From a virus: a stretch of DNA of 52,354 bases. This document shows positions 6,478-46,187 of the stretch, one piece after another (position 1 is the first letter of the stretch; every line of letters starts with the position of its first letter). The stretch lies in IMG/VR virus record IMGVR_UViG_3300026320_000002; one strand, written 5' to 3'. The notes beneath the pieces were generated by a model, which searched no databases, was not told the DNA's origin, and was given only the letters and a program-made list of their open reading frames with translations. The position numbers and the translations under genes are program-made.

Positions 6478-6489
6478 GAAGTACACCCC

Positions 6490-6851: not shown

Positions 6852-6872
6852 GGATTCTGTGGGGTCAATCAC

Positions 6873-30236: not shown

Positions 30237-30379
30237 AAAGCTGGAAGGTGCCCCATGCTGGCCCGACCACGTTCCACCGGGTGGCGCCACACCGACCTGT
30301 CGGGGCGGGCGGACATGAAGCGGATCAGGCGCTCCATGTCCTCGGTCAGCGGTTTCGCCTTGGTGAGCCGCGCGCTCAC
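30233..30379 (-). CDS. Small hypothetical protein (48 aa)
   Basis: GTGA overlap upstream and ATGA overlap downstream. GC3 is high over most of its length. Below the track cutoff from this start. Confidence 0.35.
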   Translation of the reverse strand: MSARLTKAKPLTEDMERLIRFMSARPDRSVWRHPVERGRASMGHLPAL

Positions 30380-30696: not shown

Positions 30697-31142
30697 GCGC
30701 TCGCCTCCGGGGCGGTGAGCAGGTTCGCACTGCGCACCCGATCGATCAGGCGCTGGCCGTTGCTGGTCAGCATGTGGGGCATGAAGGCCTCCTCGAAGGA
30801 CATGATCCCGCACTCCACCGCGGTCACCTGGCCCTTGACCCAATCGCGCAGGACCGAGCAGACACTGATCCTCGCCTGGGCGAGTGCCCGCTGGTCGTGC
30901 TGGTCGCGGGTGCGCGGCATCGAGCCGGTGTAGGGATGAACCTTCAGCCAGGCGGTGGCGTAGCCCTTCCAGCTCGCCTCCAGATTCACCTGCTTATCGC
31001 GCCAGCGGAAGGCCACGATCTGCACGCAGCGCTCCTGGTCGGTCATGGTCCCGAAGCTCTGGCAGCCGAAACTCGCGAGGATCTTCTGCAGCTCCATCAG
31101 CGCCTTCTCCCCGGCCGTGGCGTTTTCGTAGGGTAGGGTCAC
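30693..31142 (-). CDS. Hypothetical protein; the start is uncertain
   Basis: GTG at 31142 lies 4 nt after the upstream stop. 149 aa. Confidence 0.4.
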   Translation of the reverse strand: MTLPYENATAGEKALMELQKILASFGCQSFGTMTDQERCVQIVAFRWRDKQVNLEASWKGYATAWLKVHPYTGSMPRTRDQHDQRALAQARISVCSVLRDWVKGQVTAVECGIMSFEEAFMPHMLTSNGQRLIDRVRSANLLTAPEASA

Positions 31143-31146
31143 CCAC

Positions 31147-31506
31147 TCACCCGCCGCTGCCCACCGCTGTGCGCCCGGAACTCTCGAGCGCCGCCGAAGC
31201 GAACTCCATGTCGTGGACTCGCTGGGCGAGCAGGTACGCCTCGAGCGCCCAGATCGCATCCCGGGCCTTGGCGCGCGCGAGCTTCTGGCCCAGCTCGGCG
31301 TTAAAGTTCGCCGGACTCACGCAGGCCGCCGAGCCTATGGTTGTGAACCCATTGGTCAGTCGCAGGCAACACACCGTCATCTGGGTGCCTGGAAAGACGT
31401 GGTACTCCTCGCTCTGGATCACCGCATCGACATCGAGTGCCGTGATGCGCGGGCCGGAGGTGAGGCCTTTGGCCTGAATCTCAGCTTCGGTTGCTCGCTC
31501 GTCCAT
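31147..31506 (-). CDS. Gp49-like phage protein (N4 gp49 / Sf6 gp66 family)
   Basis: 119 aa with SD gaggagcgatccATG. RITALDVDAVIQSEEYHVFPGTQMTVCCLRLTNGFTTIGSAACVSPANFNAELGQKLARAKARDAIWALEAYLL fits the family pattern. Confidence 0.65.
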   Translation of the reverse strand: MDERATEAEIQAKGLTSGPRITALDVDAVIQSEEYHVFPGTQMTVCCLRLTNGFTTIGSAACVSPANFNAELGQKLARAKARDAIWALEAYLLAQRVHDMEFASAALESSGRTAVGSGG

Positions 31507-31516
31507 GGATCGCTCC

Positions 31517-31999
31517 TCAGTTGGTGGAATCCCGGTGTTGTTCCGGGTGTGCAATACGCAGAAAATCCGGGTTCTCGATCGCCCCTTCGACGAGGGCGAA
31601 GGCTGCCCCGGGCGGCAGGTTCGAGCAGATCTCGCACTTGACTCCCCCGTCGGCCCTGATCTCCTCGCCCGGCAGGAACAGCAGGTAGCGCAGGTCCTCT
31701 CCGACCACGCTTCGAAGCGCCGCGGCGATGGCATCTGGCCGGCTCTGTGGGGCGGGCGCCGGGGTATTAGGGGGATCCGGGACCTCGGCGCGCCAGCGTC
31801 TCAGGAGATCCTCGATCAGATCGATGCCCTGCTCGCGCGAGACGTTGGCGACGTACTTAACATGACTGGGCAGCTGTCCGGCCACCGCGGTGAGCAGCAC
31901 GAAGGCGATCTGCTCCCCGGCATCTTCGGCCATGCGCTTGTCCAGGCTCCTGGCGATCGCCTCGAGGTTATCGACGAGCCAGCGATCCGCACCGCTCAC
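31517..31999 (-). CDS. Hypothetical protein
   Basis: 160 aa with a GTGA overlap to the upstream gene. Confidence 0.55.
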   Translation of the reverse strand: MSGADRWLVDNLEAIARSLDKRMAEDAGEQIAFVLLTAVAGQLPSHVKYVANVSREQGIDLIEDLLRRWRAEVPDPPNTPAPAPQSRPDAIAAALRSVVGEDLRYLLFLPGEEIRADGGVKCEICSNLPPGAAFALVEGAIENPDFLRIAHPEQHRDSTN

Positions 32000-32739
32000 A
32001 GCCCCGCCTCCGGGCGCCAGGCGGGGTGCTGGTTCGCACGGCGCCAGAACAGCGGCTCGTTCGCCCGCATCAGCATCAGGTGCGCGATCACATCATCGGT
32101 CGGACACATCGCCCCGGCCCAGCTGTTCTGGTAGTAGGCGATCGGGTGCATGCACAGCGCGCACAGGATTCGCATGCGATCCTCATCCGCGACCAGTGCG
32201 ACGGTGGGCCGCAGGCGCCTGAACATATAGGTGACGCGGCTGCGCTCGCTCGCTTCGAGGAAGGCGCCGGTCAGCAGGTATTTCTTGAAGGCGTGGTGTG
32301 GCAGGAGCCTGGCCAGGAGCTGCAGCGCGTTGGACTCCTGCTCAATGCCCCAGGCGACCGAGGCACCCAGTGTGTTGAGCTGCTGGGTCAGACTGTGAGC
32401 GGCGGGCTGAAGGCCGTGCTCGACCCTCCCGCTGATCTCGAACACGTGTATCTCGGAGCGGCGGTGAGTCGACCAGAAGGTGTTACGCCACTTCGGTGGC
32501 GTCGGGCAGTCTTCGGCCGGAGGCGCCTCTTCCTCCTCGCGTCCGAACTGCATCAGCTCTTTGGCGTTAGGAAAGTGCGGCTCGATCATCAACGGGTGGT
32601 CCTTGCCCAGCGGCATCGGAATCCCCGCCCAGTCGGCGCGCGCCTCCGCAGCTCGCTTCAGCCCGTGGCGCAGTCCCGCCAGGGGATCGAAGGATTCGAC
32701 CAGCTTGGTCGCCTCGGGAAGTTCCTCGGCCAGACTCAT
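31996..32739 (-). CDS. Hypothetical protein; the largest product of the distal early operon
   Basis: 247 aa from ATG 32739 (MSLAEELPEAT), with an ATGA overlap to the upstream gene. Confidence 0.55.
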   Translation of the reverse strand: MSLAEELPEATKLVESFDPLAGLRHGLKRAAEARADWAGIPMPLGKDHPLMIEPHFPNAKELMQFGREEEEAPPAEDCPTPPKWRNTFWSTHRRSEIHVFEISGRVEHGLQPAAHSLTQQLNTLGASVAWGIEQESNALQLLARLLPHHAFKKYLLTGAFLEASERSRVTYMFRRLRPTVALVADEDRMRILCALCMHPIAYYQNSWAGAMCPTDDVIAHLMLMRANEPLFWRRANQHPAWRPEAGL

Positions 32740-32999
32740 TTGCCTGACTTCCGGCGCAGCGCGTCCAGGATGGCATTGCCCACGTAGCAGATGGCGCGCA
32801 TTGAGGCCCCGTCCGTGTACTGACCCGGGTAGCGGTGTGCGGCGCTGGCAGGCGTGGAGACACAAAGGGTGCAGAACCAGAAGTCTTGCTTTCGGCTGCC
32901 GCCACCGCCGGCAATGGTGGTGTGTAACTGCGGGAAAAACTCGAGCTCCGTGGTCACGTAACCGCAGCATTCGCACTCCCCGGGATTTTCCTCGGCCAT
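32736..32999 (-). CDS. Cys-rich small protein, a putative zinc-binding protein
   Basis: 87 aa. ECECCGY...FWFCTLC. Confidence 0.55.
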   Translation of the reverse strand: MAEENPGECECCGYVTTELEFFPQLHTTIAGGGGSRKQDFWFCTLCVSTPASAAHRYPGQYTDGASMRAICYVGNAILDALRRKSGK

Positions 33000-33002
33000 G
33001 GG

Positions 33003-33386
33003 CTATCCGCCGGCGGAGCGGGAGACCGCGACCGCATTGGTGGTGGTGGCATCCTTGCGGGTGAGGGGCGGGCGGCCCCGCTTGATCAGGGGCGTCCGTC
33101 CGCGCTCCAGATCCTGGGGCACATCGACAGCGCGGGCGATCTCGCCCTCCTCCTCCTGCGGGAGCCCGACGATCAGGTACTCACAGGTCTTCGGATCGAA
33201 CCCGGTCGCACTCTGGTACAGCGGCTTGCCCTTGCGCTTGCCCACCTCGACCAGGATGGCGTAGCCGCGCTTAAGCATGTCCGTGACGATGCGCGCGCAG
33301 CGCTCGCGCTCGGCGGGCTTGTTCCGATCGAAGCTCAGCTTCGTGTCCCCGCTGCCCACGTTCAGTACCGCCAGTCCCCCGTCCAT
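33003..33386 (-). CDS. Hypothetical protein
   Basis: 127 aa with an ATG start and a basic C-terminal tail. Confidence 0.55.
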   Translation of the reverse strand: MDGGLAVLNVGSGDTKLSFDRNKPAERERCARIVTDMLKRGYAILVEVGKRKGKPLYQSATGFDPKTCEYLIVGLPQEEEGEIARAVDVPQDLERGRTPLIKRGRPPLTRKDATTTNAVAVSRSAGG

Positions 33387-33387
33387 A

Positions 33388-33597
33388 TCAGTTCCCCTCG
33401 TGAACCTCTAAACAGTTGAAGTCAGGTGACCCGCGCGCCCGCATGTGGGCGTTGATCGCCTTGCAGAAACCGACCCAGACGCTCCCTAGATCATCGGGTG
33501 TCTGGCGCACATCGAAAGCCTCGGTCGTCACGTGGATGCCCACTTCACCACTCGAGTCCCTTGTGAAGTCGATGACCAGGCGGATCGAATCGTTCAT
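33388..33597 (-). CDS. Hypothetical protein
   Basis: 69 aa with an ATGA overlap to the upstream small ORF. Confidence 0.5.
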   Translation of the reverse strand: MNDSIRLVIDFTRDSSGEVGIHVTTEAFDVRQTPDDLGSVWVGFCKAINAHMRARGSPDFNCLEVHEGN

Positions 33598-33773
33598 CGG
33601 CTGAGGTTCCGCGCCGTGGGCTGGTGGCGCCAGGGCTGATCGGGGTGTCGCTCCCAGCTCCTATCGGATTGATGGTCCACACCGCCTACCGTCCTGATAG
33701 TGCGAATCCGCCGCCAGTTGCGCTCCCGGCGGAACTCCTCGAGCAGCAGCTGCAGCAGGTGCGGCAGCTTCAC
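33594..33773 (-). CDS. Small Arg-rich hypothetical protein (59 aa), not in the ORF track
   Basis: GTGA overlap with the upstream gene and ATGA overlap with the downstream gene. It fills an otherwise 170-nt gap. Confidence 0.35.
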   Translation of the reverse strand: MKLPHLLQLLLEEFRRERNWRRIRTIRTVGGVDHQSDRSWERHPDQPWRHQPTARNLSR

Positions 33774-34018
33774 GCCGGGTCCTTCCAGTTGGCCAGCGAG
33801 CGCTCAATCACATCGATCTGGGGCAGGTCCTGGTCTGGGGCGAGCTCCCCGATGAGCACCTTGTAGTCCGCCTCGGCGCCGGCATAGTCCAGCTGCCCGG
33901 CGACCAGGTCCTCCTCGGCCAGGCGGATCCGCCGGCGGGCCCCGCGCATCCTGATTCGGGCATTGCCCATCCGCTGCCAGGCATCCGAGATCCGCTCCGT
34001 GAGTGGCCGATCGCTCAT
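33770..34018 (-). CDS. Hypothetical protein
   Basis: 82 aa from ATG 34018 (MSDRPLTERI), with an ATGA overlap. Confidence 0.5.
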   Translation of the reverse strand: MSDRPLTERISDAWQRMGNARIRMRGARRRIRLAEEDLVAGQLDYAGAEADYKVLIGELAPDQDLPQIDVIERSLANWKDPA

Positions 34019-34206
34019 AAGGGCTGCTCCACTGCTGCGGCCAGCTGCAGGCGCGCCACTTCCCGGTTGCAATCGGGCAGGTAGCAATACAGCACCAGCT
34101 CGCGCTCTGGGGTCAGCTCTGCCCGAAGGGGCGCGGTCGGATGGCAGCGGGCGTGCAGGAACACCGGCCAATCACCGCACAGCTCGCAGCCCTTGGGCTC
34201 GCTCAT
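34015..34206 (-). CDS. Small Cys/His-rich protein
   Basis: 63 aa, MSEPKGCELCGDWPVFLHARCHP...CYLPDC, with an ATGA overlap. Confidence 0.5.
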   Translation of the reverse strand: MSEPKGCELCGDWPVFLHARCHPTAPLRAELTPERELVLYCYLPDCNREVARLQLAAAVEQPL

Positions 34207-34394
34207 TCGGCCCAGCTGCCTGTCACGGCGAGTCTGGTGCTGCGGGCATAGTGAGCCTCGGCGGCCACGAGCTCGCGCAGCTTCGTGGCGCGCTTGATTG
34301 CCGGGTCGGCGCAAATAAAGGCGACGCGCTCGAAGGCCGCCTCCAGGTCCTTGACCCGCTGCTGGCTCATTCTGGCGATCTGGTTGAGGGTCAT
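34203..34394 (-). CDS. Hypothetical protein, first gene of the fourth leftward operon
   Basis: 63 aa with SD ggaggatcggATG. Confidence 0.55.
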   Translation of the reverse strand: MTLNQIARMSQQRVKDLEAAFERVAFICADPAIKRATKLRELVAAEAHYARSTRLAVTGSWAE

Positions 34395-34563
34395 CCGATC
34401 CTCCGCTCCACTAAACGGGGTAGAAAACTTGCCCTCCGACAGAGACTGCGGGAGCCTAGGTCCGGGCCAGACCTACGCAACCATGCTTGAGCTGTCGGAC
34501 CTCCCGGGCAATTACACCCGCCGGTGTGCGGCGGCTTGCCTGGCGCATTCTGTAAGGGTGTCG

Positions 34564-34594
34564 ATCCTAGCCACATCGTTGCCAGTCGTCAACG
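34564..34594 (-). promoter_or_regulatory. Leftward promoter/operator PL4: -35 TTGACG, 17-nt spacer, -10 TAGGAT, with the palindrome CGTTGCCA-GT-CGTCAACG (34577-34594)
   Basis: It has the same architecture as the sites at 37384, 39930 and 42137. It is followed by a ~160-nt leader before ATG 34394. Confidence 0.6.
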
Positions 34595-34804
34595 TCGACG
34601 GTGCTGATCTGCCTGCGGGCAGGTCGCAAAGTGGCTCACGTGGCGCGGGAGCTCCAGCTTCTCATCGCCTGGCTCCACGGTGTCGGCAACGACCGGCATG
34701 TTCTTTCCGGCCGCCGTCTTGAACCAGATGATCCGGGCGTTGCAGCTGCGGCAGCGGACGATCCGCCGCTCGTGCGCCTCGGTGGTGTCTTCCTCGAAAC
34801 TCAT
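34589..34804 (-). CDS. Zinc-ribbon small protein
   Basis: 71 aa from ATG 34804 (SD ggagga). RCRSCNARIIWFKTAAGKNMPV...HFATCP. The stop lies inside the PL4 palindrome. Confidence 0.55.
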   Translation of the reverse strand: MSFEEDTTEAHERRIVRCRSCNARIIWFKTAAGKNMPVVADTVEPGDEKLELPRHVSHFATCPQADQHRRR

Positions 34805-35025
34805 CGTTCCTCCAGGTGCGGTATGCCGCGCGGGCGGCCGCACAAAGTGCAATCCCCGTGGCGATCGACCCTGAGCCCATAGCAGTTGTTCGGGGTGTGG
34901 GGAACTGGCCAGCCGTAGGTGTATGAATCCTTCGCGTACGGATCGGTGGCCGCGGCGGTGCAGCCAGGAACAACGCAGTGCCAGGCGATCGGATCCAGAT
35001 CGAACAGGTGCAGGTGCGTCGCCAT
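34801..35025 (-). CDS. Cys-rich small protein
   Basis: 74 aa from ATG 35025. Confidence 0.45.
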   Translation of the reverse strand: MATHLHLFDLDPIAWHCVVPGCTAAATDPYAKDSYTYGWPVPHTPNNCYGLRVDRHGDCTLCGRPRGIPHLEER

Positions 35026-35033
35026 GCTCACGC

Positions 35034-35276
35034 TCACGTGCGCGTCTCCACTTGCTCGACGCTGTGTACCTTCCCGATGATCGCCCCGGCCATGGCCTTG
35101 GACTGCCGTCCCTTGGAGCGCAGCGCCTTCTCCCCGATCTGACGCATGATCGAATCGATGTCGATCACCAGCTCGAGCACGCCGGTCTTTGTGACCTCGC
35201 GCCGTTCGGTCCACTGGCCCGCGCCGGTGCGCGCCGTGACTTGGGAGACAAATAGCTTCTTGCCGTGATTGGTCAC
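35034..35276 (-). CDS. Hypothetical protein
   Basis: 80 aa with a GTGA overlap. Confidence 0.5.
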   Translation of the reverse strand: MTNHGKKLFVSQVTARTGAGQWTERREVTKTGVLELVIDIDSIMRQIGEKALRSKGRQSKAMAGAIIGKVHSVEQVETRT

Positions 35277-35617
35277 GCTTCGATCCTCGCTACGAACTCA
35301 CGCAGATCCTTTGTCAGGGCGGAGAACTCAGTGTGGCCGCGCGACCAGGTGGCCGCCTCCATCTCGATAACCGCGTGCTTGAGCTTCCCGATCAGCTCCT
35401 GGTGCGCATTGCAGGCCTTCACGATGAAGTGTGCGAGCACTGGATTCTGCGCGTGCGCGACGGTCCGGTGGATGTCTGCGAGCAGGACGCCGAGCCGGCG
35501 TGACTGTGGGTGCTCGCGCGCCGCGACTTCGATGATCCGGCACTGCTCGGCCCAATCGGCGGGTTCGCCGGTGAAGGGCTTCTCGGTCTGCCAGGGCGGT
35601 AGTGATATTTCGATCAC
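35273..35617 (-). CDS. Hypothetical protein, member of the NA-x-FIV-x-ACNAH-x-EL paralogue family
   Basis: 114 aa with a GTGA overlap. AQNPVLAHFIVKACNAHQELIGKLK. Confidence 0.55.
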   Translation of the reverse strand: MIEISLPPWQTEKPFTGEPADWAEQCRIIEVAAREHPQSRRLGVLLADIHRTVAHAQNPVLAHFIVKACNAHQELIGKLKHAVIEMEAATWSRGHTEFSALTKDLREFVARIEA

Positions 35618-36141
35618 GGCGCCACCTTGGCGAGCGCGGCATCGATTACAACCTCAGCTGGAATGCCGTCTCCGGATTGTGGGTCTTTGTGGGCGCGTCG
35701 ACAGTACGCTATGCACTCTCGCGCCAACCGCAGCGCCGCCAGCAGATCAGGCGCTGCGTTGCGAACCTTCTCGAGCTGCTCGGCGTCCGCCCGGGCTCTC
35801 GCATCTGCGGCAAGCTGTTCCGTGTAGGCGAGGCGTGCGGCCTCTAGCCTGTCCGATCCCGCGACGCTCCACATGGCGTGAACCAGCGCGAGCGCTGGCT
35901 TCGAGGTCAGCGGCCGCAGACAGCGCGTGTGAAAATAGCCCGGCTCGTGCGGGCCCAGATGCAGCGGCGGATTCTTGTAAAGCTCCGCGGGGATCGCCGT
36001 GGCGCCACTCGACCACCAGAAGTGATACCGGAGGCCTTTGTGCTCGCAGGAGATGGAGTAGCGGTCGCTCGGCCCGTAATACTCGACCTCGACGTTCGAG
36101 ATGTGCTCCCCGTCGATGAAGGTGGCCATGGAAGCGCTCAC
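35614..36141 (-). CDS. Hypothetical protein with a C-terminal NAAPDLLAAL-type motif
   Basis: 175 aa with a GTGA overlap (ATG 36129 is an alternative start). VRNAAPDLLAALRLARECI. Confidence 0.55.
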   Translation of the reverse strand: MSASMATFIDGEHISNVEVEYYGPSDRYSISCEHKGLRYHFWWSSGATAIPAELYKNPPLHLGPHEPGYFHTRCLRPLTSKPALALVHAMWSVAGSDRLEAARLAYTEQLAADARARADAEQLEKVRNAAPDLLAALRLARECIAYCRRAHKDPQSGDGIPAEVVIDAALAKVAP

Positions 36142-36521
36142 GGGCCCATCCAGAGCCGGGCGACCACATCGCGCGGGAACAGGTAGGTCTTACCGTTCGC
36201 ATCCGATCGGGCGAGGATCTTGCCGCTCCGCGCCTTCGCGCCGGAGACCTGGTAGTCACAGGCCCCGTAGTGAAACTTGCCACCGAGTGGCGGGAGCGGC
36301 GGGGTGGAGTGCTGGCGCATCAGCTCGTAGTGGCTGGCCTCCGGCGTGAGGCCTCCGGCGGCGAGCGCCTGGAGTTTGAAGGTCACCGCCCCGTTCGGAT
36401 CGAAGCTGGCGTTGCCAACCTCGATCGATTCCAGGCCCGCGGCCTTCAGATCGAATCCGGCCAGGTGCTCGGTGAGCTGTTCGCGGAGTTTGCGGACCGC
36501 GTCCCGCGTCAATGCACTCAT
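36138..36521 (-). CDS. Hypothetical protein
   Basis: 127 aa with an ATGA overlap. Confidence 0.55.
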   Translation of the reverse strand: MSALTRDAVRKLREQLTEHLAGFDLKAAGLESIEVGNASFDPNGAVTFKLQALAAGGLTPEASHYELMRQHSTPPLPPLGGKFHYGACDYQVSGAKARSGKILARSDANGKTYLFPRDVVARLWMGP

Positions 36522-37366
36522 GCTGTTTCCTCCATCACGCTGTCAACCGCTGGCTTCAGCAGCTGCTCGAGCGCGACCTTCAAGTAACCTTCCGTCACGA
36601 ACTGGGCCATGCTGTTGCTGAGCATGCGCTGCCAGGCGCCCTCGGTCGGGGCCCAGCGGAAGCCGTTGCGCTTCAGCAGATCCCGCACCGCCTCCGGGGG
36701 CTTGCCCGGGAAGATGAGCTGCAGGCGGTTCGCCTGGTGGTTCTTGACCACCTGATAGGGGCCGACGTCGACCGTCTCGCTCTCCTGGTCCATCGTCTTG
36801 GCCAGTGCCTGGAGGTGTTCGATCCGCTGGCGGATCCTCCGGATATTGGCGTTGTTGTTCTGGATCTGGTAGCAGGCGAAGCCGATCCGCCCGGCAAAGT
36901 CGGGCCGGAGTAGCGCTTGGGCCTGCGGGCCTGAGATCCCCAGCGCACCGAGCGCGGTGATCTGCATGATCGGGCCCGCCTTGGCGTGCTTGCGGATCGC
37001 GGCGTTGACCGCCTTCATCCGCACCTGGAGCGCTTCGAGCTTGAGAACCTTTTCGAGGAGCTTGTCCGGGGCGTCCGGATCATCGGAGCTCACCCCACCG
37101 CTCCCGACCGCCGCGGCCTTCGCGGCCAGTTCCTTGGCGCGCTCTGAGGCTTCAAAGGCCTTGGAGAAATTCTGGTGGATCCGCGCCCGATAGCGCCGGT
37201 CTCGGCCTTCGCTATGGTGGCCGACCAGGATCGGCTGGCCGAAGGGGATCACGCTGGCAAGGGCTCGGGCCCGCGCGTGCCGGGCGTTGCCTTCCCGCTC
37301 GTACTTAGAGGCCAGATCCAGCAGCCGCTGGCGCCTGGCTTCCTGCTTCGCTTCGTAGTGGTTCAT
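36518..37366 (-). CDS. DUF3560-like protein, first gene of the third leftward operon
   Basis: 282 aa. FGQPILVGHHSEGRDRRYR and the C-terminal LKRNGFRWAPTEGAWQR match my recollection of DUF3560, which is common in plasmid and phage early regions. Confidence 0.6.
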   Translation of the reverse strand: MNHYEAKQEARRQRLLDLASKYEREGNARHARARALASVIPFGQPILVGHHSEGRDRRYRARIHQNFSKAFEASERAKELAAKAAAVGSGGVSSDDPDAPDKLLEKVLKLEALQVRMKAVNAAIRKHAKAGPIMQITALGALGISGPQAQALLRPDFAGRIGFACYQIQNNNANIRRIRQRIEHLQALAKTMDQESETVDVGPYQVVKNHQANRLQLIFPGKPPEAVRDLLKRNGFRWAPTEGAWQRMLSNSMAQFVTEGYLKVALEQLLKPAVDSVMEETA

Positions 37367-37550
37367 CTGAGTCCTCGGTCTCCATTGTGGGCGCGCTGTT
37401 GCCAGTTGTCAACAAGTGATCTTGACCCCAGCGCTTGTGAATCTCAGCCTCCTCGAGCCGGTGTGCCGGGCACACCTCGAGCCAGCGCTGCCCGTCCTCG
37501 CAGCAACCGCACTTGTGGTGGTGGGTCCAACGTCTGCTTTTCCCGTTCAT
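37305..37550 (-). CDS. Small Cys/His-rich protein whose reading frame runs through the PL3 promoter
   Basis: ATGA overlap upstream. HHHKCGCCEDGQRWLEVCPAH. GC3 drops after ~45 codons and no stop occurs until 37305. Confidence 0.35.
   Translation of the reverse strand: MNGKSRRWTHHHKCGCCEDGQRWLEVCPAHRLEEAEIHKRWGQDHLLTTGNSAPTMETEDSDEPLRSEAGSQAPAAAGSGL
37384..37414 (-). promoter_or_regulatory. Leftward promoter/operator PL3: -35 TTGACA, 17-nt spacer, -10 CACAAT, with the palindrome TGTTGCCA-GT-TGTCAACA (37397-37414)
   Basis: It lies 18 nt upstream of the ATG of 36518..37366 and has the same architecture as the other three sites. Confidence 0.6.
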
Positions 37551-37738
37551 GGCGTTCCCTCCTTTCGTCGGCGTGGCGGCCTGAGCACGCGCACGCTCAC
37601 CTCGAGCGGGTCGTCCATGCCGTTGCTGACCTGCAGGCCAAATCGGAAGTCGGCCGCCCTGAAGTTCGCGCTGTCCCTGCGGGGCACTGTGAAGCGGACC
37701 AGCAGCGTTCCCACCCGCTCGCGCGGATTGCGGCTCAT
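37547..37738 (-). CDS. Hypothetical protein
   Basis: 63 aa with an ATGA overlap. Confidence 0.45.
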   Translation of the reverse strand: MSRNPRERVGTLLVRFTVPRRDSANFRAADFRFGLQVSNGMDDPLEVSVRVLRPPRRRKEGTP

Positions 37739-38001
37739 GCTTTGGCTCCCGGGGAGGCAATGGGACGCAAGGGGACTATCTGGGACGTGCTGGGACTCAC
37801 CGGCGCACGCTGGGCCCGGTGGACCTTGCGCCAGTCGAATCCGTGCTGCTCGGCGTAGGTCCGGATCCTCTGGACCAGCTCGCGCGGAATGACAGTGCTC
37901 ATGCCGTACTTGTTGAAGCGCTCGGGCGCCGCGGCGGCGACCTCGAGGGCCATAGCGGCGAGCACCAGGAGGGGTTCCGGATCGCGCTTCTCGCTGCTCA
38001 C
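37735..38001 (-). CDS. Hypothetical protein
   Basis: 88 aa with a GTGA overlap. Confidence 0.5.
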   Translation of the reverse strand: MSSEKRDPEPLLVLAAMALEVAAAAPERFNKYGMSTVIPRELVQRIRTYAEQHGFDWRKVHRAQRAPVSPSTSQIVPLRPIASPGAKA

Positions 38002-38315
38002 GTGCGCGCCCCGGCGAGGCGCCTCTGTTCCTCGCGCCTCGTGCGTGCGCTCAAGGCGAGTCGATCAATGTACTGCGCGGTCTGCCGATCGAGCCACTCC
38101 GGCCCGAACCCGTTCCGAATCTGTTGAAGCTGTGGGTTGTAGCCAGGCACGCCCTGGCCCGCCCGATACCACGCATCGAGCAGGTCGCGCTTCCAGTGAC
38201 GCCGCGGCCTGAGTGCGCCCTGCGGCCAGATCCAATCATAGAGGGCGAGGATCTGCGCCTCGGTCAGGCGCTGGGTGAGCCGGTCCGCCGCTAGTTTGGT
38301 GCTCATGCTTCTCAT
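37998..38315 (-). CDS. Hypothetical protein
   Basis: 105 aa from ATG 38315 (MRSMSTKL, SD ggagaggag), with an ATGA overlap. Confidence 0.5.
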   Translation of the reverse strand: MRSMSTKLAADRLTQRLTEAQILALYDWIWPQGALRPRRHWKRDLLDAWYRAGQGVPGYNPQLQQIRNGFGPEWLDRQTAQYIDRLALSARTRREEQRRLAGART

Positions 38316-38668
38316 GCTCCTCTCCGCTGTTGCCAGTAGGTCTCGGCCCATTCCTGGACCGCTTCGAGCACTTCCCGGAAGTCATCCCCTGGGCTGGTGC
38401 CGTAGCTGAAGTCACAGATCAGCTCATCCGGGGAGTTGCCCAGGACGATGTACACCACGTGCAGCACGCCATTGGCGTTCTTGAATTTCAGCCGGCAATC
38501 ATCGCCCGCGAAGATCTCCTCGTAGCGCTCCTGCAGATCCTGCGGGACGGGCTCGTACCCATCGCCGTTATTGATCCGCACCAAGGACCAGCCCGCGGCG
38601 GAGAGTGCGCTGACCATGTAGCGGCAGATCTCAAACTCCGCCTGGCGCTCAGGATGGATCTCATTCAC
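38312..38668 (-). CDS. Hypothetical acidic protein
   Basis: 118 aa with a GTGA overlap. Confidence 0.5.
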   Translation of the reverse strand: MNEIHPERQAEFEICRYMVSALSAAGWSLVRINNGDGYEPVPQDLQERYEEIFAGDDCRLKFKNANGVLHVVYIVLGNSPDELICDFSYGTSPGDDFREVLEAVQEWAETYWQQRRGA

Positions 38669-38943
38669 GGGGCACCTTCCTTGTGGATCTCGAGCAGATG
38701 CCGATTGGCCGCCTGCCACTTGTCGAAACCGTTGGGCTTGCGGCCGCGCACGATGAAAGCGGTCATCGACATGTCCGCCCCGGCGTTCTCGTGGCGCGCG
38801 CTGCGCACCGCCAGCTCGACCTCTGCGAGGCTGGTGATCTCCACCACCTTGCGGTAGCCGGGCTTGGTCAGGTCGTACTTGACCTTGATGAACCCGCCGC
38901 CGTACTCACACGGGCGGGCGCTGATTGCGAGTGTTGCGCTCAT
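38665..38943 (-). CDS. Hypothetical protein
   Basis: 92 aa from ATG 38943 with an ATGA overlap. Confidence 0.5.
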   Translation of the reverse strand: MSATLAISARPCEYGGGFIKVKYDLTKPGYRKVVEITSLAEVELAVRSARHENAGADMSMTAFIVRGRKPNGFDKWQAANRHLLEIHKEGAP

Positions 38944-39170
38944 GCGTTCTCCTGGTAATAGCGGGCATCGGCCTGCTGGTCTCGGTAGACCGCAGCGACA
39001 CGTCGCAGGATCTTGAAGGCATCGGTGTAGTTGGAGGCGTCGTTCCAATGCCGCTCCCAGTCGCTCTGTTCCCAGCATTCGACCATGGTGTCGGCGCCGC
39101 GGCTGTAATTCGCCTGGCACCACGCGCGCATCCGCGCGATGCCGACTTCCTGGGTGATCCGTACGCTCAC
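38940..39170 (-). CDS. Hypothetical protein
   Basis: 76 aa with a GTGA overlap. WCQANYSRGADTMVECWEQSDWERHW. Confidence 0.5.
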   Translation of the reverse strand: MSVRITQEVGIARMRAWCQANYSRGADTMVECWEQSDWERHWNDASNYTDAFKILRRVAAVYRDQQADARYYQENA

Positions 39171-39490
39171 AGCTGCACCTTGGCGAGCGCAGCGCGGGCC
39201 TTGCGGATAGTGTGGCGCAGCGCGACCTCCGCGCCAGAGCCCACTCGAGCGTGCGGCAGTTCCTCCTCCGCAATGTCTCGGCAGAACTTTAGTGCCGCCA
39301 CCAGCTCGTCGTGCGCGTTGCAGGCCGTGACGATGAAAGCGGCGTCTGCTGGGTTGCGCACCAGCTGCGCGATACCTTCCCGCCAATCGCCGGCGCGCCC
39401 ATAGGTCTCGCCGCCCTCCTGGTAGGTGTCACCGTCCGGCATGATCACGCCGCCATCGGCGTACCACGGCCCCGGCGTGCGGGCGCTCAC
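39167..39490 (-). CDS. Hypothetical protein, member of the NA-x-FIV-x-ACNAH-x-EL paralogue family
   Basis: 107 aa with a GTGA overlap and SD ggagg. GPWYADGG...NPADAAFIVTACNAHDELVAALK. Confidence 0.55.
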   Translation of the reverse strand: MSARTPGPWYADGGVIMPDGDTYQEGGETYGRAGDWREGIAQLVRNPADAAFIVTACNAHDELVAALKFCRDIAEEELPHARVGSGAEVALRHTIRKARAALAKVQL

Positions 39491-39903
39491 TCTGCCTCCA
39501 GGCCCGCCGGCACTTCCTGCCAGCCTTTCGGGGCTTGTGGAACGATCGGATAGGCGGCGGCGACCCGCGCCCACCTGGGGCTGCTCTCTTGGTTGAACCC
39601 GGCCGTCATCTTCGCGGTCTCGCGAGCGGCCTCAACTTGCGGGATGCTGAACAGGTGGGGGAAGGCGAGCACCACCAGCGCCCACTCGCAATCTTCCTCG
39701 AACGCGCAGGCGTCGGTGTGGTAGCCCTGGTTGATTCGCAGCACCCCAGGCATGGCGCCCAGGCGCTCGCGGGAGATGAGATACCCGCCGTGGCTCGGGG
39801 TCGTCACGGACCAGATCCCGGGGGCGACCTGCTCGGCCCAATCGATCTGGCCCCAGGGGGACGATCGCGGGCGGGGCATGGTCTCAAAGCTCTTGGTCAT
39901 CAT
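39487..39903 (-). CDS. DUF7007-like protein, first gene of the second leftward operon
   Basis: 138 aa. SPWGQIDWAEQVAPGIWSVTTPSHGGYLIS fits my recollection of DUF7007, which occurs in plasmid and phage early regions. Confidence 0.55.
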   Translation of the reverse strand: MMTKSFETMPRPRSSPWGQIDWAEQVAPGIWSVTTPSHGGYLISRERLGAMPGVLRINQGYHTDACAFEEDCEWALVVLAFPHLFSIPQVEAARETAKMTAGFNQESSPRWARVAAAYPIVPQAPKGWQEVPAGLEAE

Positions 39904-39929
39904 GTTGTCCTCCTCGTTTCCAGAGCCTC

Positions 39930-39960
39930 AGTGTGCACGCTCTGTTGACAACTGTCAACA
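39930..39960 (-). promoter_or_regulatory. Leftward promoter/operator PL2: -35 TTGACA, 17-nt spacer, -10 CACACT, with the palindrome TGTTGACA-AC-TGTCAACA (39943-39960)
   Basis: About 55 nt including the leader and SD are similar to the PL1 region (tcctcc...agagcc..ag.gtgc.cgctctgttgaca..tgtcaaca). Confidence 0.65.
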
Positions 39961-40050
39961 CTCAGGCGGCCACGACATTGGCCGCGACCAGCGCCCGGGC
40001 GACTGCCGGGGGGACGGAGTTCCCGCACATCCGAACCTGGCTGGTTTTGG

Positions 40051-40518
40051 TCATGCTGCGTATCTCCGGCCGGCGCCGTTCGGGTTCTTCGGGCGCACCG
40101 GCACCGTTAGTGCCTCATCGACAGTCCAGCCGCCATCAAGTCGTTTCTTGACGGTATCGCGCGGCAATGCGAGCAGCTCACACCACTCCGCGAGCGGACG
40201 CCTGGCGCCGTTGAAGTCCAGCACGCGATTGCTGCGTCGGTTACGGTCGTTGACCTTTCGCAGTACCCAGCGGCAGTTTCCTGGCTCGTAGTGACCGTTG
40301 TTGTCGCGGCGATCCAGTTCATGCGCCAGGCTGGGCTTCGGTCCCATGTCAGCGACGAACGCTGCCACATCGTTCAGCCAGCGGGCACAGACGCGAATGC
40401 CGCGACCACCATAATTGGCGTAGGCGGCGTTGCTGGGCACGGTGCAGCGCAACCGCATCATTTGCCATGCGCGGTACTCGCGCGTGCTGGATAGGCCATG
40501 GATCGGTTTGCCGCTCAT
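40051..40518 (-). CDS. Putative DNA-binding / homing-endonuclease-like protein (YGGRGI motif family)
   Basis: 155 aa from ATG 40518 with an ATGA overlap. YRAWQMMRLRCTVPSNAAYANYGGRGIRVCARW...LDRRDNNGHYEPGNCRWV. Confidence 0.5.
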   Translation of the reverse strand: MSGKPIHGLSSTREYRAWQMMRLRCTVPSNAAYANYGGRGIRVCARWLNDVAAFVADMGPKPSLAHELDRRDNNGHYEPGNCRWVLRKVNDRNRRSNRVLDFNGARRPLAEWCELLALPRDTVKKRLDGGWTVDEALTVPVRPKNPNGAGRRYAA

Positions 40519-41405
40519 GCGAAGCACGCGCAGCCGCCGATGTCGAACATGTCCACCTGGGCGCCGGCCTCGATTCGCTCCCGAAGCTGGCGCATCGTCA
40601 GTGGCTTTCTCACGCCGCCTCCGCTGCGGTCGGTCATCATCGACACGTTCTTGTCGAGGTACGCGCGCAACGCTTCCTCGCGCGCCTCGTGCTCGGCGTA
40701 GCGCGCTGGCATTGTTCGCAGCAGATTGGCGAACTGTCCTTGGCCGGCCTTGCAGCAGAACCCGCCGCAATTATTGTGAGAGAAGCCCATGGCGTACAGC
40801 CGAGGCGGCGCGATGCCCTCGCGCTTGAGCCATGCCAACAGGTCCAGCTTCAGCAGGTAGGGCGCATCACACAGCGGCGCCATGTACACCCACGGTTTGC
40901 GGCGTTCCACCAGGGCGTCGTAGCGGTGCTTCTCTGTCCAGTCGATGCCGACGTAGCAAGCCGTGCGCGCCGGGTCGCAGTGCTCGTTCAGCCAACGGTC
41001 CGCCATCTGGCGTTTCAGGATCTTGCTGCAAGGGTCAATCGAACTGTTCCCAAGGAATCGTTCGTCTTGGTACACCTGCCATGGCGTGCGACCCTCGGCG
41101 ATGCGGCACAATCGCGCGCCGACGTTCGCCGCGGCTTCATCCAGAAATCGGTAGCAGTCCTCATCCTCAATCAGTGTGTCGGTAAACAGCAGCGTCATAC
41201 GATCGGTGCCGTGCCGCTCAGCCACTCGCTTCGCGGCAGCCCACGAGCCGACGCCGCCGCTGAACATGACGACGTGCATGGCGATCGCCTCGGCGTCGTG
41301 ATTGATCGCGTAGTCGATGTGGGCGCCCAGGCCCGCTTCGATGCCGGTAGAGGCCCCGCCGCCGCCGGCGAAGTTGTCGACCACGATCTCCGGTCTGGCG
41401 TTCAC
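40515..41405 (-). CDS. PAPS-reductase-like PP-loop protein fused in frame to a C5-DNA-methyltransferase motif-I N-terminal stub
   Basis: aa 1-42 IVVDNFAGGGGASTGIEAGLGAHIDYAINHDAEAIA carry the FxGxG SAM-binding motif I. From the internal ATG (41279) the sequence reads MHVVMFSGGVGSWAAAKRV (SGGxxS PP-loop). Cys clusters CGGFCCKAG and GGCACF lie at the C-terminus. Confidence 0.65.
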   Translation of the reverse strand: MNARPEIVVDNFAGGGGASTGIEAGLGAHIDYAINHDAEAIAMHVVMFSGGVGSWAAAKRVAERHGTDRMTLLFTDTLIEDEDCYRFLDEAAANVGARLCRIAEGRTPWQVYQDERFLGNSSIDPCSKILKRQMADRWLNEHCDPARTACYVGIDWTEKHRYDALVERRKPWVYMAPLCDAPYLLKLDLLAWLKREGIAPPRLYAMGFSHNNCGGFCCKAGQGQFANLLRTMPARYAEHEAREEALRAYLDKNVSMMTDRSGGGVRKPLTMRQLRERIEAGAQVDMFDIGGCACFA

Positions 41406-41722
41406 GGCTCTACCCGATCGTGAATGGCCACTGCGCCGTAGAACCTATGGCCCAGCAGCTCCTCGCACTTCTGGTTGAAGCGGCTGTCCGAGGTCTCGGC
41501 GAAATTCCCGCCGGCCATCACCCAGGAGTCGCCGCACTCGAGCGGGCGGATCCGCAGGCACCCCGGAACATGCTGTTCGAGGACTGCCGCCGGCGCCTCG
41601 GGCCGCGGGTCAAACGGGCCCTCGACATTGGTCAGGGTAAGTTGATCGAAGCGCGCGCTCGCGCCGCCGTTGCTGCAATCGCCCAGGCGGGGCGAGCGCA
41701 ACACATAGACTGGCATTCCCAT
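41402..41722 (-). CDS. Hypothetical protein coupled to the PAPS-reductase-like gene
   Basis: 106 aa with SD ggaggaacaattATG. Its stop overlaps the GTG of the next gene. Confidence 0.55.
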   Translation of the reverse strand: MGMPVYVLRSPRLGDCSNGGASARFDQLTLTNVEGPFDPRPEAPAAVLEQHVPGCLRIRPLECGDSWVMAGGNFAETSDSRFNQKCEELLGHRFYGAVAIHDRVEP

Positions 41723-41781
41723 AATTGTTCCTCCGTTCCGTTCACCGCGGCGCCCCTCCTCGAGACGCCCGAGTCAGCGGA

Positions 41782-42111
41782 TCAGGCGTAGCCTGTCTGG
41801 CTCTGGGGCTTCCCGTCCCAGGGCGTGGCGTGGGCATAGCTCGCAATCTTCACGCAGGCCCCGTGGTAGGGGCTGGCCTTGACCTTTTTCTTGAAGGGCC
41901 GGCCGATCACATCCTCCGGCACCGCGACCACCGTTCCGGACCAGTGATCCCCGGACACGTACTTCTGGCCGACCTTCACCAGCTGGCAGAACTTGCCCAC
42001 CTCGGCCGGGCCGACCACCTTGTAGAAATCAACGTTCGTTTGATCGTACCCCCAGGAACTGACCAGCACGTCGCCTGCCGCGAGTCCCGTGGGTTTGGCA
42101 TCCTGATTCAT
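41782..42111 (-). CDS. Hypothetical protein, first leftward early gene
   Basis: 109 aa with SD ggaggacgccATG. Confidence 0.6.
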   Translation of the reverse strand: MNQDAKPTGLAAGDVLVSSWGYDQTNVDFYKVVGPAEVGKFCQLVKVGQKYVSGDHWSGTVVAVPEDVIGRPFKKKVKASPYHGACVKIASYAHATPWDGKPQSQTGYA

Positions 42112-42136
42112 GGCGTCCTCCGTTCCTTAGAGCCGT

Positions 42137-42166
42137 AGCATGCGCGCTCTGTTGACACATGTCAAC
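42137..42166 (-). promoter_or_regulatory. Leftward promoter/operator PL1: -35 TTGACA, 17-nt spacer, -10 CATGCT, with the palindrome TGTTGACA-CA-TGTCAACA (42149-42166)
   Basis: It lies in the 97-bp divergent intergenic region and has perfect 8-bp arms. Confidence 0.65.
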
Positions 42167-42172
42167 AACGAC

Positions 42173-42203
42173 GGTTGACACACGTCACCAAATCTCCTAT
42201 AAG
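42173..42203 (+). promoter_or_regulatory. Rightward promoter PR: -35 TTGACA (42175-42180), 17-nt spacer, -10 TATAAG (42198-42203), overlapping the imperfect palindrome GGTTGACA-CA-CGTCACC
   Basis: Both hexamers are near consensus. The -10 ends 5 nt before the ATG at 42209, which implies a leaderless mRNA. Confidence 0.65.
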
Positions 42204-42208
42204 GCCGC

Positions 42209-42418
42209 ATGGGAATCCTCGAGCAGCACCTCAAGGCCAAAAAGCTCTCGGCCTCCGAGCTCTCACGGCGCGCCGGGATCTCCCGCTCCGCCCTGAGCCG
42301 TTACCTTTCGGGCGAGCGCATCCCCACCGTGGAGGCACTGCAGCGCCTGGCGAAGGCCACGCGCATCCCGATCTCCAAGCTGGCGCGAAATTTCTCTTAT
42401 CTCTCAACACAGGAGTAG
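42209..42418 (+). CDS. XRE-family helix-turn-helix transcriptional regulator, a candidate repressor or Cro-like switch protein
   Basis: 69 aa. LSASELSRRAGISRSALSRYLSGERIPTVEALQRLAKAT is a classic HTH_3 pattern. There is no room for a 5' leader or SD. Confidence 0.8.
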   Translation: MGILEQHLKAKKLSASELSRRAGISRSALSRYLSGERIPTVEALQRLAKATRIPISKLARNFSYLSTQE

Positions 42419-44097: not shown

Positions 44098-44202
44098 GGG
44101 GGAAAAGCCCCGGGGTGTGTGGCCAGTCCCCACCCCGGGACCTAGAGGTGCCCGAGTCACGAGGGCCGGGCATGGCTTCTCCGTAGAACGAGTCTAGCAA
44201 GC

Positions 44203-44211
44203 TGTGGATAA
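44203..44211. promoter_or_regulatory. Perfect DnaA-box 9-mer (TGTGGATAA, the complement of TTATCCACA)
   Basis: Read directly from aagcTGTGGATAActtg. It lies in the ORF-free island next to the AT-rich tract cttgaaaaagaaaag. Confidence 0.4.
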
Positions 44212-44294
44212 CTTGTGAAGTGCGAGGAAGAACAATGAGATGGCGGTCTCAGGAGCTCCTGGCTGCGCCAGTCTGGGCTGCGTTAAAGCTCTTG

Positions 44295-44323
44295 AAAAAG
44301 AAAAGCCACCAGATTATGGTGGC
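44295..44323 (-). terminator. Minus-strand rho-independent terminator inside the ORF-free island
   Basis: On the minus strand: GCCACCA-taatc-TGGTGGC followed by TTTTCTTTTT. The plus strand has no U-tract after the hairpin. Confidence 0.6.
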
Positions 44324-44640
44324 TCTCCTCGGTCCGTTGAAGGCGGATTCGGGCATTGTGGCGAGTAGTGGATTCGCCGGCGCCCTCCTAGTTCGCTGGC
44401 ATTTTACCCCGAAAGTTCCTTGCTCCGCAACGCCTTGCACGCTCCGAGCGTCAGTGCTGCGTGAAGCTGTCGGCCGAAACCGGCCAGTCGCACTCAAACG
44501 GTTATCCCGGGTAAAGCTGAGCCCATTGCTTCCCGGTCGTAGTGGAACCGCCTGGGGCGGCCGCAGAAAAGCGGAGGGGACCCGAGTAGCCTGGAAGGCG
44601 GCCGCCGACCATGGGGAAAGGGCGATAGCTTTGAGCAACA
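44295..44640 (-). ncRNA. Candidate minus-strand non-coding RNA of up to ~350 nt, ending at the 44295-44323 terminator; the 5' end is unknown
   Basis: No frame has coding-like GC3. There are several GC hairpins (GGCCG-aaac-CGGCC and two GGCGGCCGC palindromes). The terminator orientation implies leftward transcription. Confidence 0.3.
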
Positions 44641-44650
44641 GGAGCAGCGC

Positions 44651-45547: not shown

Positions 45548-45939
45548 ACGGCCGCGACGCGCTCGAGGCGCTGCTCGCCACCGCGATGAAACAGCGGGAT
45601 TACAGGCGGCCAGGTGAGGCCTGGCGGATGGCGCAGGTACTGTGCGAGATCATCTACGCCACGCTTCACCCACCGGGCAGCGCGACCTTCGCCAATCCGG
45701 GAGAGAGCCTGGACGAGCTAGTCCGGCGCACCGCAAAGCGCGGGCCCTACCCTGACATGCTGGTGCCCACGCACTGGACGATCGAGCCGGCTCTCCTCAA
45801 CGAACTGCAGCAGGCGGGCATTGTGGAGGTGGTTCGGATGGCCAAGCTGGCCCACTGGGTCGATGTCACCATGCGCGTCGACGGGCGCTACGTGGTCTAC
45901 CAGGCCGACTGGATCAAACACCTGCAGGGCGGCCCATGA
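45544..45939 (+). CDS. Hypothetical protein
   Basis: 131 aa with a TTG start that overlaps the upstream stop (TTGA). Confidence 0.5.
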   Translation: MNGRDALEALLATAMKQRDYRRPGEAWRMAQVLCEIIYATLHPPGSATFANPGESLDELVRRTAKRGPYPDMLVPTHWTIEPALLNELQQAGIVEVVRMAKLAHWVDVTMRVDGRYVVYQADWIKHLQGGP

Positions 45940-46187
45940 ACCTGCTGGACTTCACTTCCCGGCAATGCGAAGTAATCAAGCTACTCGCTGCGTGGAATGA
46001 CAACAAGAGCGTTGCACTCGCACTCGGCATATCGAAAAAGACGGCGGAGAAGCACCGTGCGCACATCTACGAGCGGGGAGGCTTTCGCAACGCCGTGGAC
46101 GTTACACTGTTCGCCTTCAGAAACGGCTTGTTCCCGGAGCCGCTGGTCTGCCCGAAGTGTGGGCATGACCTAATGGAGGTGCAATGA
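45936..46187 (+). CDS. LuxR/GerE-type HTH transcriptional regulator with a C-terminal CxxC
   Basis: 83 aa. FTSRQCEVIKLLAAWNDNKSVALALGISKKTAEKHRAHIYERGGFRNAVDVTLFAFRNGL, then CPKCGH. Confidence 0.7.
   Translation: MNLLDFTSRQCEVIKLLAAWNDNKSVALALGISKKTAEKHRAHIYERGGFRNAVDVTLFAFRNGLFPEPLVCPKCGHDLMEVQ

Follow-up and report, generated by a model that had tools for sequence, protein, structure and literature searches.

The stretch of viral DNA analysed here, IMG/VR record IMGVR_UViG_3300026320_000002 (52,354 bp in all; "the window" throughout), contains a leftward block of small genes in which one short promoter-like module, fused to an 18-bp palindrome, occurs four times between positions 34564 and 42167. 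Next to the rightmost copy lies a divergent promoter-like site with a degenerate fifth palindrome, followed directly by a gene for a small helix-turn-helix (HTH) protein. The four leftward modules are called PL1 to PL4, the rightward site PR, and the palindromes at PL1 and PR, which we take as putative operators, O1 and O2. A preliminary description of this DNA had reported four minus-strand sites, each with a -35 element, exactly 17 nt and a -10 element, and all four were found at the positions it gave. The features of the region are as follows (SD, Shine-Dalgarno sequence; aa, amino acids).

42137-42167, minus strand: PL1 module; TGTTGACATGTGTCAACA at 42167-42150, -35 TTGACA at 42165-42160, 17-nt spacer, -10 CATGCT at 42142-42137
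42112-42136, minus strand: PL1 leader; SD GGAGGA, then ATG at 42111
39930-39960, minus strand: PL2 module; TGTTGACAGTTGTCAACA at 39960-39943, -35 at 39958-39953, 17-nt spacer, -10 CACACT at 39935-39930
37384-37414, minus strand: PL3 module; TGTTGACAACTGGCAACA at 37414-37397, -35 at 37412-37407, 17-nt spacer, -10 CACAAT at 37389-37384
34564-34594, minus strand: PL4 module; CGTTGACGACTGGCAACG at 34594-34577, -35 TTGACG at 34592-34587, 17-nt spacer, -10 TAGGAT at 34569-34564
34395-34563, minus strand: PL4 leader of about 170 nt, preceding the gene at 34203-34394
42173-42190, plus strand: O2, degenerate palindrome GGTTGACACACGTCACCA, covering the PR -35
42175-42208, plus strand: PR; -35 TTGACA at 42175-42180, 17 nt, -10 TATAAG at 42198-42203, 5 nt, then ATG at 42209
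42209-42418, plus strand: gene for a 69-aa Cro/CI-type HTH_3 protein (Pfam HTH_3, E=6.4e-15), first gene of the rightward operon

Palindromic modules of the leftward block

All four PL sites have the form expected of a sigma-70-type promoter, that is, TTGACA or TTGACG, exactly 17 nt and a -10 of the type NANNNT, and downstream of each there is a GGAGG-type SD and then an ATG at 15-170 nt. The inverted repeat that had been noticed over the -35 and the first half of the spacer is an 18-bp palindrome with the consensus TGTTGACA-NN-TG(T/G)CAACA, in which the left arm contains the -35 and the right arm is the half-site TGTCAACA. O1 (42150-42167) is a perfect palindrome, TGTTGACAtgTGTCAACA. The operators of PL2 (39943-39960) and PL3 (37397-37414) read TGTTGACAgtTGTCAACA and TGTTGACAacTGGCAACA, and that of PL4 (34577-34594), CGTTGACGacTGGCAACG, is a weaker copy. 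PL1 and PL2 also share their leader, as had been described, with 77% identity over 62 aligned columns from the operator through the ATG. TTGACA occurs on the opposite strand at PL2 and PL3 as well, there without a -10. From their positions, PL2 would drive the DUF7007 gene at 39487-39903 and PL3 the DUF3560 gene at 36518-37366.

The modules lie in non-coding DNA upstream of a gene start and in the correct orientation for a promoter. Genes of the leftward block overlap or abut except at five gaps of more than 20 bp (42112-42208, 41723-41781, 39904-39961, 37367-37546 and 34395-34588); the modules occupy four of these, and the fifth holds a conserved RNA hairpin described below. Two of the operators had been thought to sit partly inside coding tails. 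This holds for PL4, whose -35 overlaps the TGA stop (34591-34589) of the gene at 34589-34804. The other supposed tail, that of the open reading frame (ORF) at 37305-37550, is probably no real coding tail, the ORF itself looking spurious: its G+C content at third codon positions (GC3) is 0.66-0.77 as against 0.82-0.86 in the clearly coding neighbours that were measured, it overlaps the DUF3560 start, and gene calling reported it in just one of two identical contigs. The division of the block into four operons was not borne out, in that a simple scan found no intrinsic terminators at the operon borders; the local hairpins upstream of PL2 and PL3 have no U-tracts, and their folding is no better than that of shuffled sequence. 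PL1 to PL4 may instead be additive internal promoters of one long array.

The motif is far above chance. In the window, up to two mismatches give matches at PL1-PL3 alone (shuffle mean 0.02), and up to three add PL4, the fifth copy at 42173-42190 and a borderline intragenic site at 26851 (shuffles 0.21). A position weight matrix built from 12 modules of the window and its relatives scores PL1-PL3 at 32-35 bits, PL4 at 20.4 and the fifth copy at 16.2, against 15.7 for the top of 20 shuffles, and its scan of the window gave no convincing intragenic copies. The borderline site (26851-26868, plus strand, TGCTGACAATCGGCTACA), which lies inside the gene at 26538-27149, has three mismatches and 16.3 bits and is probably due to chance. 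In 1.19 Mb of unrelated prophage loci there was a single match at up to two mismatches. A palindrome scan of IMG/VR returned 25 loci, all unrelated by tblastx. An operator scan of metagenomes returned 11 sites, isolated and at chance level, and the contigs that carry them have little or no sequence in common with the window (one of them, L139, has scattered weak tblastx matches to it). Searching the literature for this palindrome among known operators turned up nothing relevant.

On the other side of the divergent region, O2 covers PR in the way that O1 covers PL1, over the -35 and spacer, and it lies 19 bp ahead of the HTH start codon. This is the degenerate fifth copy that had been proposed for the divergent promoter. 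Between the PR -10 and the ATG at 42209 there is no strong (GGAGG-type) SD, and an mRNA from PR is predicted to be leaderless or nearly so. As in a Cro/CI-type switch, palindromic operators therewith lie over core elements of two putative divergent early promoters beside a regulator gene.

Conservation in relatives and the adjacent HTH gene

Relatives were recovered from metagenomes with two handles, the adjacent gene for a 109-aa protein and the DUF3560 gene. With W denoting the window lineage, identities to W are as follows.

L038: 109-aa gene 77%; HTH protein 99% identical
L039-41: 109-aa gene 64%; HTH protein of 64 aa, 69% identical
L123: 109-aa gene 85%; 64-aa HTH protein, the same as that of L039
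L126: DUF3560 gene 86%; HTH region not covered
L037 (contig SRR33232070_1473): 109-aa gene 76%; HTH protein of 82 aa, 48% identical

In this genome and these relatives the sites are not only above chance, they recur at orthologous positions, which answers the motif search that had been suggested as a check. PL1 was found in every lineage that covers its region, and its module is kept in L038, L039-41 and L123. PL2 is kept in L038 and L039-41 and is absent in L123, and PL3 stands ahead of DUF3560 in L038, L040/41, L123 and L126. The PL4 orthologue, at 5369-5386 of L126, has a better palindrome (TGTTGACGccTGTCAACG) with an identical spacer and -10.

An alignment of 12 modules, drawn from four lineages, shows no variation at GTTGAC, at five positions of the mirror half-site (G25 and CAAC), at -11A or at -7T. 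The central NN takes at least seven values among the 12 modules, and variation also occurs in the flanks and elsewhere in the spacer. Among the more diverged pairs, identity is 83-100% in the operator and 40-57% in the 60 nt upstream of it. The upstream half of the spacer is a region in which the polymerase requires no specific sequence. The mirror half-site is nevertheless invariant there, which is our chief evidence for a reader with two-fold symmetry. It is the sequence of the arms that is kept, since an asymmetric variant, TGGCAACA, breaks the stem and is maintained in both W and L038.

The divergent layout of O1 and O2 is conserved in the four lineages with the canonical operator (W, L038, L039-41 and L123) and is present in a diverged form in L037. 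In all four of the former, PR reads TTGACA, 17 or 18 nt, TATAAG, 5 nt and ATG, with differing bases in between; in L037 the last gap is 7 nt. The weak right half-site of O2, GTCACC, is identical in the same four lineages, and this like weakening suggests that a hierarchy of affinities is conserved. O1 and O2 are separated by 23 bp in W and in L038, by 34 bp in L039-41 and by 45 bp in L123. The distances differ by exact 11-bp steps although the sequence between the operators is unrelated, so that helical phase is kept; measured from the predicted start of PR, O1 is located about 50, 62 and 73 bp upstream in the respective lineages and stays in phase throughout. The operators of L037 have diverged to GGTTGACGCCTGTCAAAT and AGTTGACACGTGCAAACT. 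Its internal promoters were not recovered, as the contig stops 860 bp into the block and searches for DUF3560 and DUF8317 homologues gave no protein from L037.

The identification of the gene at 42209 as that of an HTH protein was confirmed. HTH_31 and HTH_26 likewise score above the Pfam cut-off, the PHROGs label is transcriptional regulator/repressor, and the domain is of the Cro/C1 type. An HTH_3 orthologue stands beside the operators in all five lineages in which the divergent region was recovered, with a length of 64-69 aa in the four canonical-operator lineages and 82 aa in L037 and without an oligomerisation or autocleavage domain. The start of the recognition helix, IS(R/K)S, is conserved, in parallel with the conserved TTGAC core of the sites. 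A single-sequence structural model (mean predicted local distance difference test score, pLDDT, 79.5) has five short helices and a weak sixth. Its nearest folds are restriction-modification (R-M) controller proteins (2b5a and 1y7y at the top), the N-terminal domains of SinR and P22 c2, 434 Cro and CylR2, all of them dimeric proteins that bind palindromic operators. The Foldseek values (E about 0.01, template modelling score 0.65-0.72) do not discriminate among C proteins, SinR, P22 c2 and 434 Cro. A PDB sequence search found just one designed HTH (E=0.009), and the relatives of the protein in IMG/VR are on unrelated low-GC contigs.

The palindrome is most likely bound by this 69-aa protein, because its gene is the only recognisable DNA-binding gene that adjoins the operators wherever the region was recovered. 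The preliminary description had also offered the protein encoded at 28276, as a winged HTH protein, for this part; Pfam and PHROGs gave it no recognisable DNA-binding domain, and nothing that we found supports it in this part. The two-fold symmetry of the operator, the half-site spacing of about 10 bp and the centre near -28.5 suggest that an HTH dimer binds the site and represses.

Genome setting and neighbouring elements

The window is essentially the complete genome of an uncultivated tailed phage, and the group to which it belongs is uncultivated, about 52 kb in size, 66% in GC content and podovirus-like. GC content is 64-70% along all 52,354 bp, and several soil-type metagenomes hold identical or near-identical contigs of 51,996-52,354 bp. 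Megablast and blastn of the region against 50,697 records of cultured phages gave no DNA-level match, and the large terminase (TerL) shares just 40% identity with those of Acidovorax phage AP1 and Bordetella phage BPP-1. Besides terminase, portal and capsid genes are present. From GC3 frame analysis and public gene calls, the latter converted as window = L031 + 32208, three gene blocks were drawn.

1-27667, plus strand: structural and lysis genes
28276-42111, minus strand: leftward block of about 45 small genes, which we read as transcribed from PL1-PL4
from 42209, plus strand: rightward block; YfdP-like, DUF2303, RusA, Acb2/Tad1-like, small and large terminase, then structural genes

The HTH gene is 5 bp upstream of the next rightward genes (YfdP-like and DUF2303), which lead on to the terminase and structural genes. 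Family matches within the leftward block are to ParB-N/PAPS-reductase, DUF8317, DUF7007, DUF3560 and N4 gp49-like proteins, and a methylase is additionally found among the leftward accessory genes of L038; the genes with a family match are of kinds often linked to anti-restriction. In the ORFs that were scanned (the longer and the GC3-supported ones) and in precomputed annotations there was no integrase, recombinase or ParA-type or plasmid-partition gene, and Pfam scans and precomputed matches contained no CI C-terminal domain. A search of 185,579 species genomes found no prophage copy, the best match being 46% identical. A scan of genome contigs with the 109-aa family gave only distant prophage homologues (up to 46% identity), from many phyla and none with the motif, and pointed to no host.

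Outside the leftward block, a 1549-aa "polyvalent" protein in the structural block (15657-20306, plus strand) has ART-PolyVal, Zeta-toxin-like and ddrB-ParB domains; these and its location make it a candidate for an anti-defence protein that is injected. In the rightward block, a 118-aa protein (48019-48375, plus strand) has a weak match to the Acb2/Tad1 hairpin (the anti-CBASS/Thoeris sponge family), which is stronger in L038 and L040.

Several conserved stretches lie between called genes. A hairpin separates the first gene of the leftward block from the DUF8317 gene (41723-41781, minus strand), GGGCGTCTC-GAGGA-GGGGCGCC, extended by CCGYTGAC/GTGAACGG and situated immediately upstream of the next SD. 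Its minimum free energy is -28.6 (z=-2.25), it is near-identical in L038, L039 and L123 and absent in L037, and its possible roles are attenuation, processing by RNase III or stabilisation of the mRNA. The PL4 leader (34395-34563, minus strand), compared with L126, is better conserved than the coding sequence on either side, has at least two compensatory stem changes and contains indels; as these break the frame, it is non-coding. Its single-sequence fold is not unusually stable (z=-0.47), and it matched no Rfam family. On the rightward side, an uncalled stretch of 554 bp (44098-44650, plus strand) between the genes for a 146-aa and an 87-aa protein is found as the same gap in every relative. 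Conservation of its 3' part of about 350 nt (about 44290-44640) is very high and extends even to L037, with protein identities of only about 50-76%. The conserved blocks include GGCCGAAACCGGCC, TCCCGGTCGTAGTGGA, GGAGGGGACCCGAGTAGCC and ACCATGGGGAAAGGGCGA, and a promoter-like site, TTGAAA-17-TATGGT, lies ahead of them at 44292-44320. RNAalifold gave 71 pairs, eight of them with compensatory changes. There was no Rfam family and no pattern match in IMG/VR or JGI metagenomes, and we regard the stretch as a candidate for a new structured non-coding RNA or a replication origin.

The neighbourhood of PL2 differs between lineages in gene content. A 30-aa ORF (39962-40054, minus strand; MTKTSQVRMCGNSVPP...) abuts the module and is what remains of the C-terminal end of a C5 DNA methyltransferase. 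L038 has the intact enzyme (502 aa) at this place, and W has the ParB-N/PAPS-reductase gene and a gene for a 155-aa protein instead, so that a cassette has been exchanged right at a conserved promoter module. The module may thus mark borders where accessory-gene cassettes are swapped. Three contigs that had been collected as relatives (L127, L128 and L129) proved to be other phages without the motif. One of them, L129, an unrelated phage with a DUF8317 homologue, has a repeated intergenic module of its own ahead of four consecutive small genes (6015-7354), in which a hairpin precedes a common G-rich GCGCACT(Y)(Y)CGC core; this is a different promoter-like element.

Interpretation as a probable early-gene switch

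These in-silico results support the core of the preliminary reading, in which a palindromic operator is joined to a promoter of the sigma-70 type, the combination is used four times, and a weak copy lies at the divergent promoter. We think it likely that a Cro-like regulator shuts off four early promoters of the host RNA polymerase and throttles its own. The four sites would be sigma-70-type early promoters in which the -35 TTGACA has been turned into one arm of a palindrome. In all five promoters the palindrome would span about -37 to -20, with its centre near -28.5, and a bound dimer would exclude sigma region 4 and RNA polymerase. A centre near -28.5 is not a position used by class I or class II activators, and a 17-nt spacer rules out activation of the MerR type; because the geometry fits neither, steric repression is likely. 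After infection, PL1-PL4 and PR would be fired by the host polymerase and the HTH protein would build up. The near-perfect operators of PL1-PL3 would be filled first and that of PL4 next, turning off the leftward accessory genes, and at a higher concentration the weak O2 over the PR -35 would be filled too, which would limit the regulator's own operon. Overall this would be an early shut-off of the Cro type with negative autoregulation. The HTH protein looks Cro-like and not like a classical immunity repressor, since it is encoded first in the rightward operon, lacks a second domain and comes with no lysogeny module that we could find.

Some observations weigh against this interpretation. At PL1 and PL2 the -10 agrees with the consensus at only three of six positions, and the PR -10, TATAAG, is without the usual -7T in every lineage. 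A sigma-70 consensus was assumed, and it may not be that of the host. No terminators were found that would set the share of each PL promoter apart, and in L037, with its 48%-identical HTH protein and diverged operators, the contig ends before the internal promoters. Lastly, a regulator whose gene is in an operon under its own weak operator may also serve in maintenance, that is, in lysogeny. The phased spacing of O1 and O2 and the defective PR -10, such as an activator-dependent promoter might have, have led us to consider that the regulator at O1 may act as a two-way switch, occluding PL1 (and, at their own sites, PL2-PL4) and acting positively on PR from a phased upstream position on the same face of the helix. 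We give this possibility some weight, and it is clearly the less probable form of control.

Four other explanations of the sites can be weighed against a Cro-like shut-off by the HTH protein. The promoters and operators may be as described and the protein that binds them another one, either a phage product (the 28276 protein or that of a GerE/LuxR-type gene at 45936-46187) or a host regulator. The assignment of protein to site is by context, a GerE-type HTH gene is indeed present, and single copies of the palindrome in unrelated metagenomic contigs suggest that other regulators may use similar sites. However, the GerE-type gene was flagged just in window-type contigs and not in L038, L039 or L037, the first two of which keep the operators, the 28276 protein has no DNA-binding domain match, and the HTH_3 gene is in the classical cis position, with a weak operator of its own, and is the only recognisable DNA-binding gene beside the operators in each lineage for which this region is available. 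We consider another binder unlikely. Somewhat less likely still is that the HTH protein is the immunity repressor of a temperate phage and that the five operators silence a prophage, in the manner of lambda CI or P1 C1. The lambda cI mRNA from PRM is leaderless, as the HTH mRNA is predicted to be, and the best tblastn matches in cultured phages are annotated as CI-like repressors (about 43% identity). Against this, the ORFs scanned and the precomputed annotations contained no gene for integration, recombination or partition, the protein is short and has neither an oligomerisation nor an autocleavage domain, no prophage copy was seen among the species genomes, and the HTH gene would be cotranscribed with rightward genes that lead into the terminase and structural genes.

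The remaining two explanations do without a binding protein or without transcription control. If the sites were mere duplicated strong promoters, the palindrome would be a by-product of copying or of a symmetric -35 and the second half-site would not be read. The identity of PL1 and PL2 through the leader does suggest common descent, and the left half-site is a plain consensus -35. We nevertheless find this improbable, since the right half-site is invariant at five positions in 12 modules of which the NN, remaining spacer and flanks vary, since the opposite-strand TTGACA at PL2 and PL3 has no -10, and since the mirror half-site is specifically weakened at PR in all four canonical-operator lineages. 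Least probable, by a little, is that the palindromes are RNA elements or DNA elements outside transcription, such as terminator or processing hairpins at the 3' ends of operons lying upstream, or dispersed parS-like centromere sites as in N15. A 7-bp hairpin could form in a read-through RNA, and the ends TGTT...AACA vaguely resemble parS. But the palindromes have no trailing U-tract, PL1 is the best palindrome yet has no co-directional transcript upstream, and the conserved property is arm sequence and not pairing, as the stem-breaking variant kept in W and L038 indicates. There is, further, no ParA-type ATPase or stand-alone ParB partition gene among the annotations, the ParB-like, nuclease-type domains occurring only in fusion to the PAPS-reductase-like and 1549-aa polyvalent proteins, and the constant spacing of 17 nt to a -10 in which -11A and -7T never vary would be left unexplained.

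Among known systems, the functionally closest are the Cro/OL/OR logic of lambdoid phages and the phage regulons in which a single regulator serves many operators. Lambdoid Cro/CI systems (lambda, 434 and P22) likewise encode their XRE-type HTH regulator within a divergent region of early control, and they have palindromic operators of 14-18 bp over core elements of leftward and rightward early promoters, graded operator strength and autoregulation, and the regulator here would be the first rightward gene, as cro is. They differ in that lambdoids have tandem triplets of operators where there is one per promoter here, and a single PL with antitermination where there are four leftward promoters over 7.6 kb; here the operator is a palindromised -35 hexamer, and Pfam scans and precomputed matches revealed no CI partner, integrase or lysogeny module. 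Dispersed-operator regulons, such as those of P1 C1 and of the phiC31 repressor with its conserved inverted repeats (CIRs), resemble the present one in that one regulator would act at scattered copies of one short site and govern several transcription units together; their regulators, however, are immunity repressors of temperate phages. The stoperators of Cluster A mycobacteriophages are also dispersed repressor sites (PMC9283540, PMC6550527), and at these asymmetric 13-bp sites, present in many copies and oriented within transcribed regions, a monomeric repressor blocks elongation (PMC9283540). In contrast to the asymmetric sites of stoperators and P1, those described here are 18-bp palindromes, only five in number and each at a fixed promoter register.

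The R-M controller (C) proteins, for example C.BclI, C.AhdI and C.Esp1396I, are all-helical XRE dimers of about 70-80 aa, and they were the top structural neighbours of the modelled protein. C proteins bind two adjacent palindromic sites of unequal affinity at their own promoter, have leaderless transcripts and serve a timing function. Their C-box, however, is GACT-N3-AGTC and the site here is GAC-N4-GTC, the proposed regulon reaches four remote promoters, and the HTH gene has as neighbours the YfdP-like and DUF2303 genes and no endonuclease; we regard the similarity in the model as generic for XRE proteins. Global regulons are also known from plasmids, namely RK2 KorA/KorB and the ArdK/StbA-type networks on IncN and IncW leading regions, and such regions typically carry genes for DUF3560, DUF7007 and methylases. 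These regulons have in common with the system proposed here a small repressor, identical palindromic operators, several promoters and accessory or anti-restriction genes; they differ in protein families and operator sequences, and the genome here is that of a phage with terminase, portal and capsid genes.

Control of early transcription by a single repressor at multiple operators is textbook knowledge, and the understanding of phage regulation is left unchanged by what would be a clean but ordinary example of early-gene switch-off. The phased distances between O1 and O2, the weak operator that is conserved at PR and the predicted leaderless mRNA of the regulator are tidy details and no surprises. 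For this group of uncultivated phages the analysis yields a compact regulatory map of five putative operators, one small regulator and four early promoters, and it offers a portable 31-bp promoter-operator part with a consensus -35. It also indicates that the accessory genes, several of them of kinds often linked to anti-restriction, would be expressed first after infection and then shut off.

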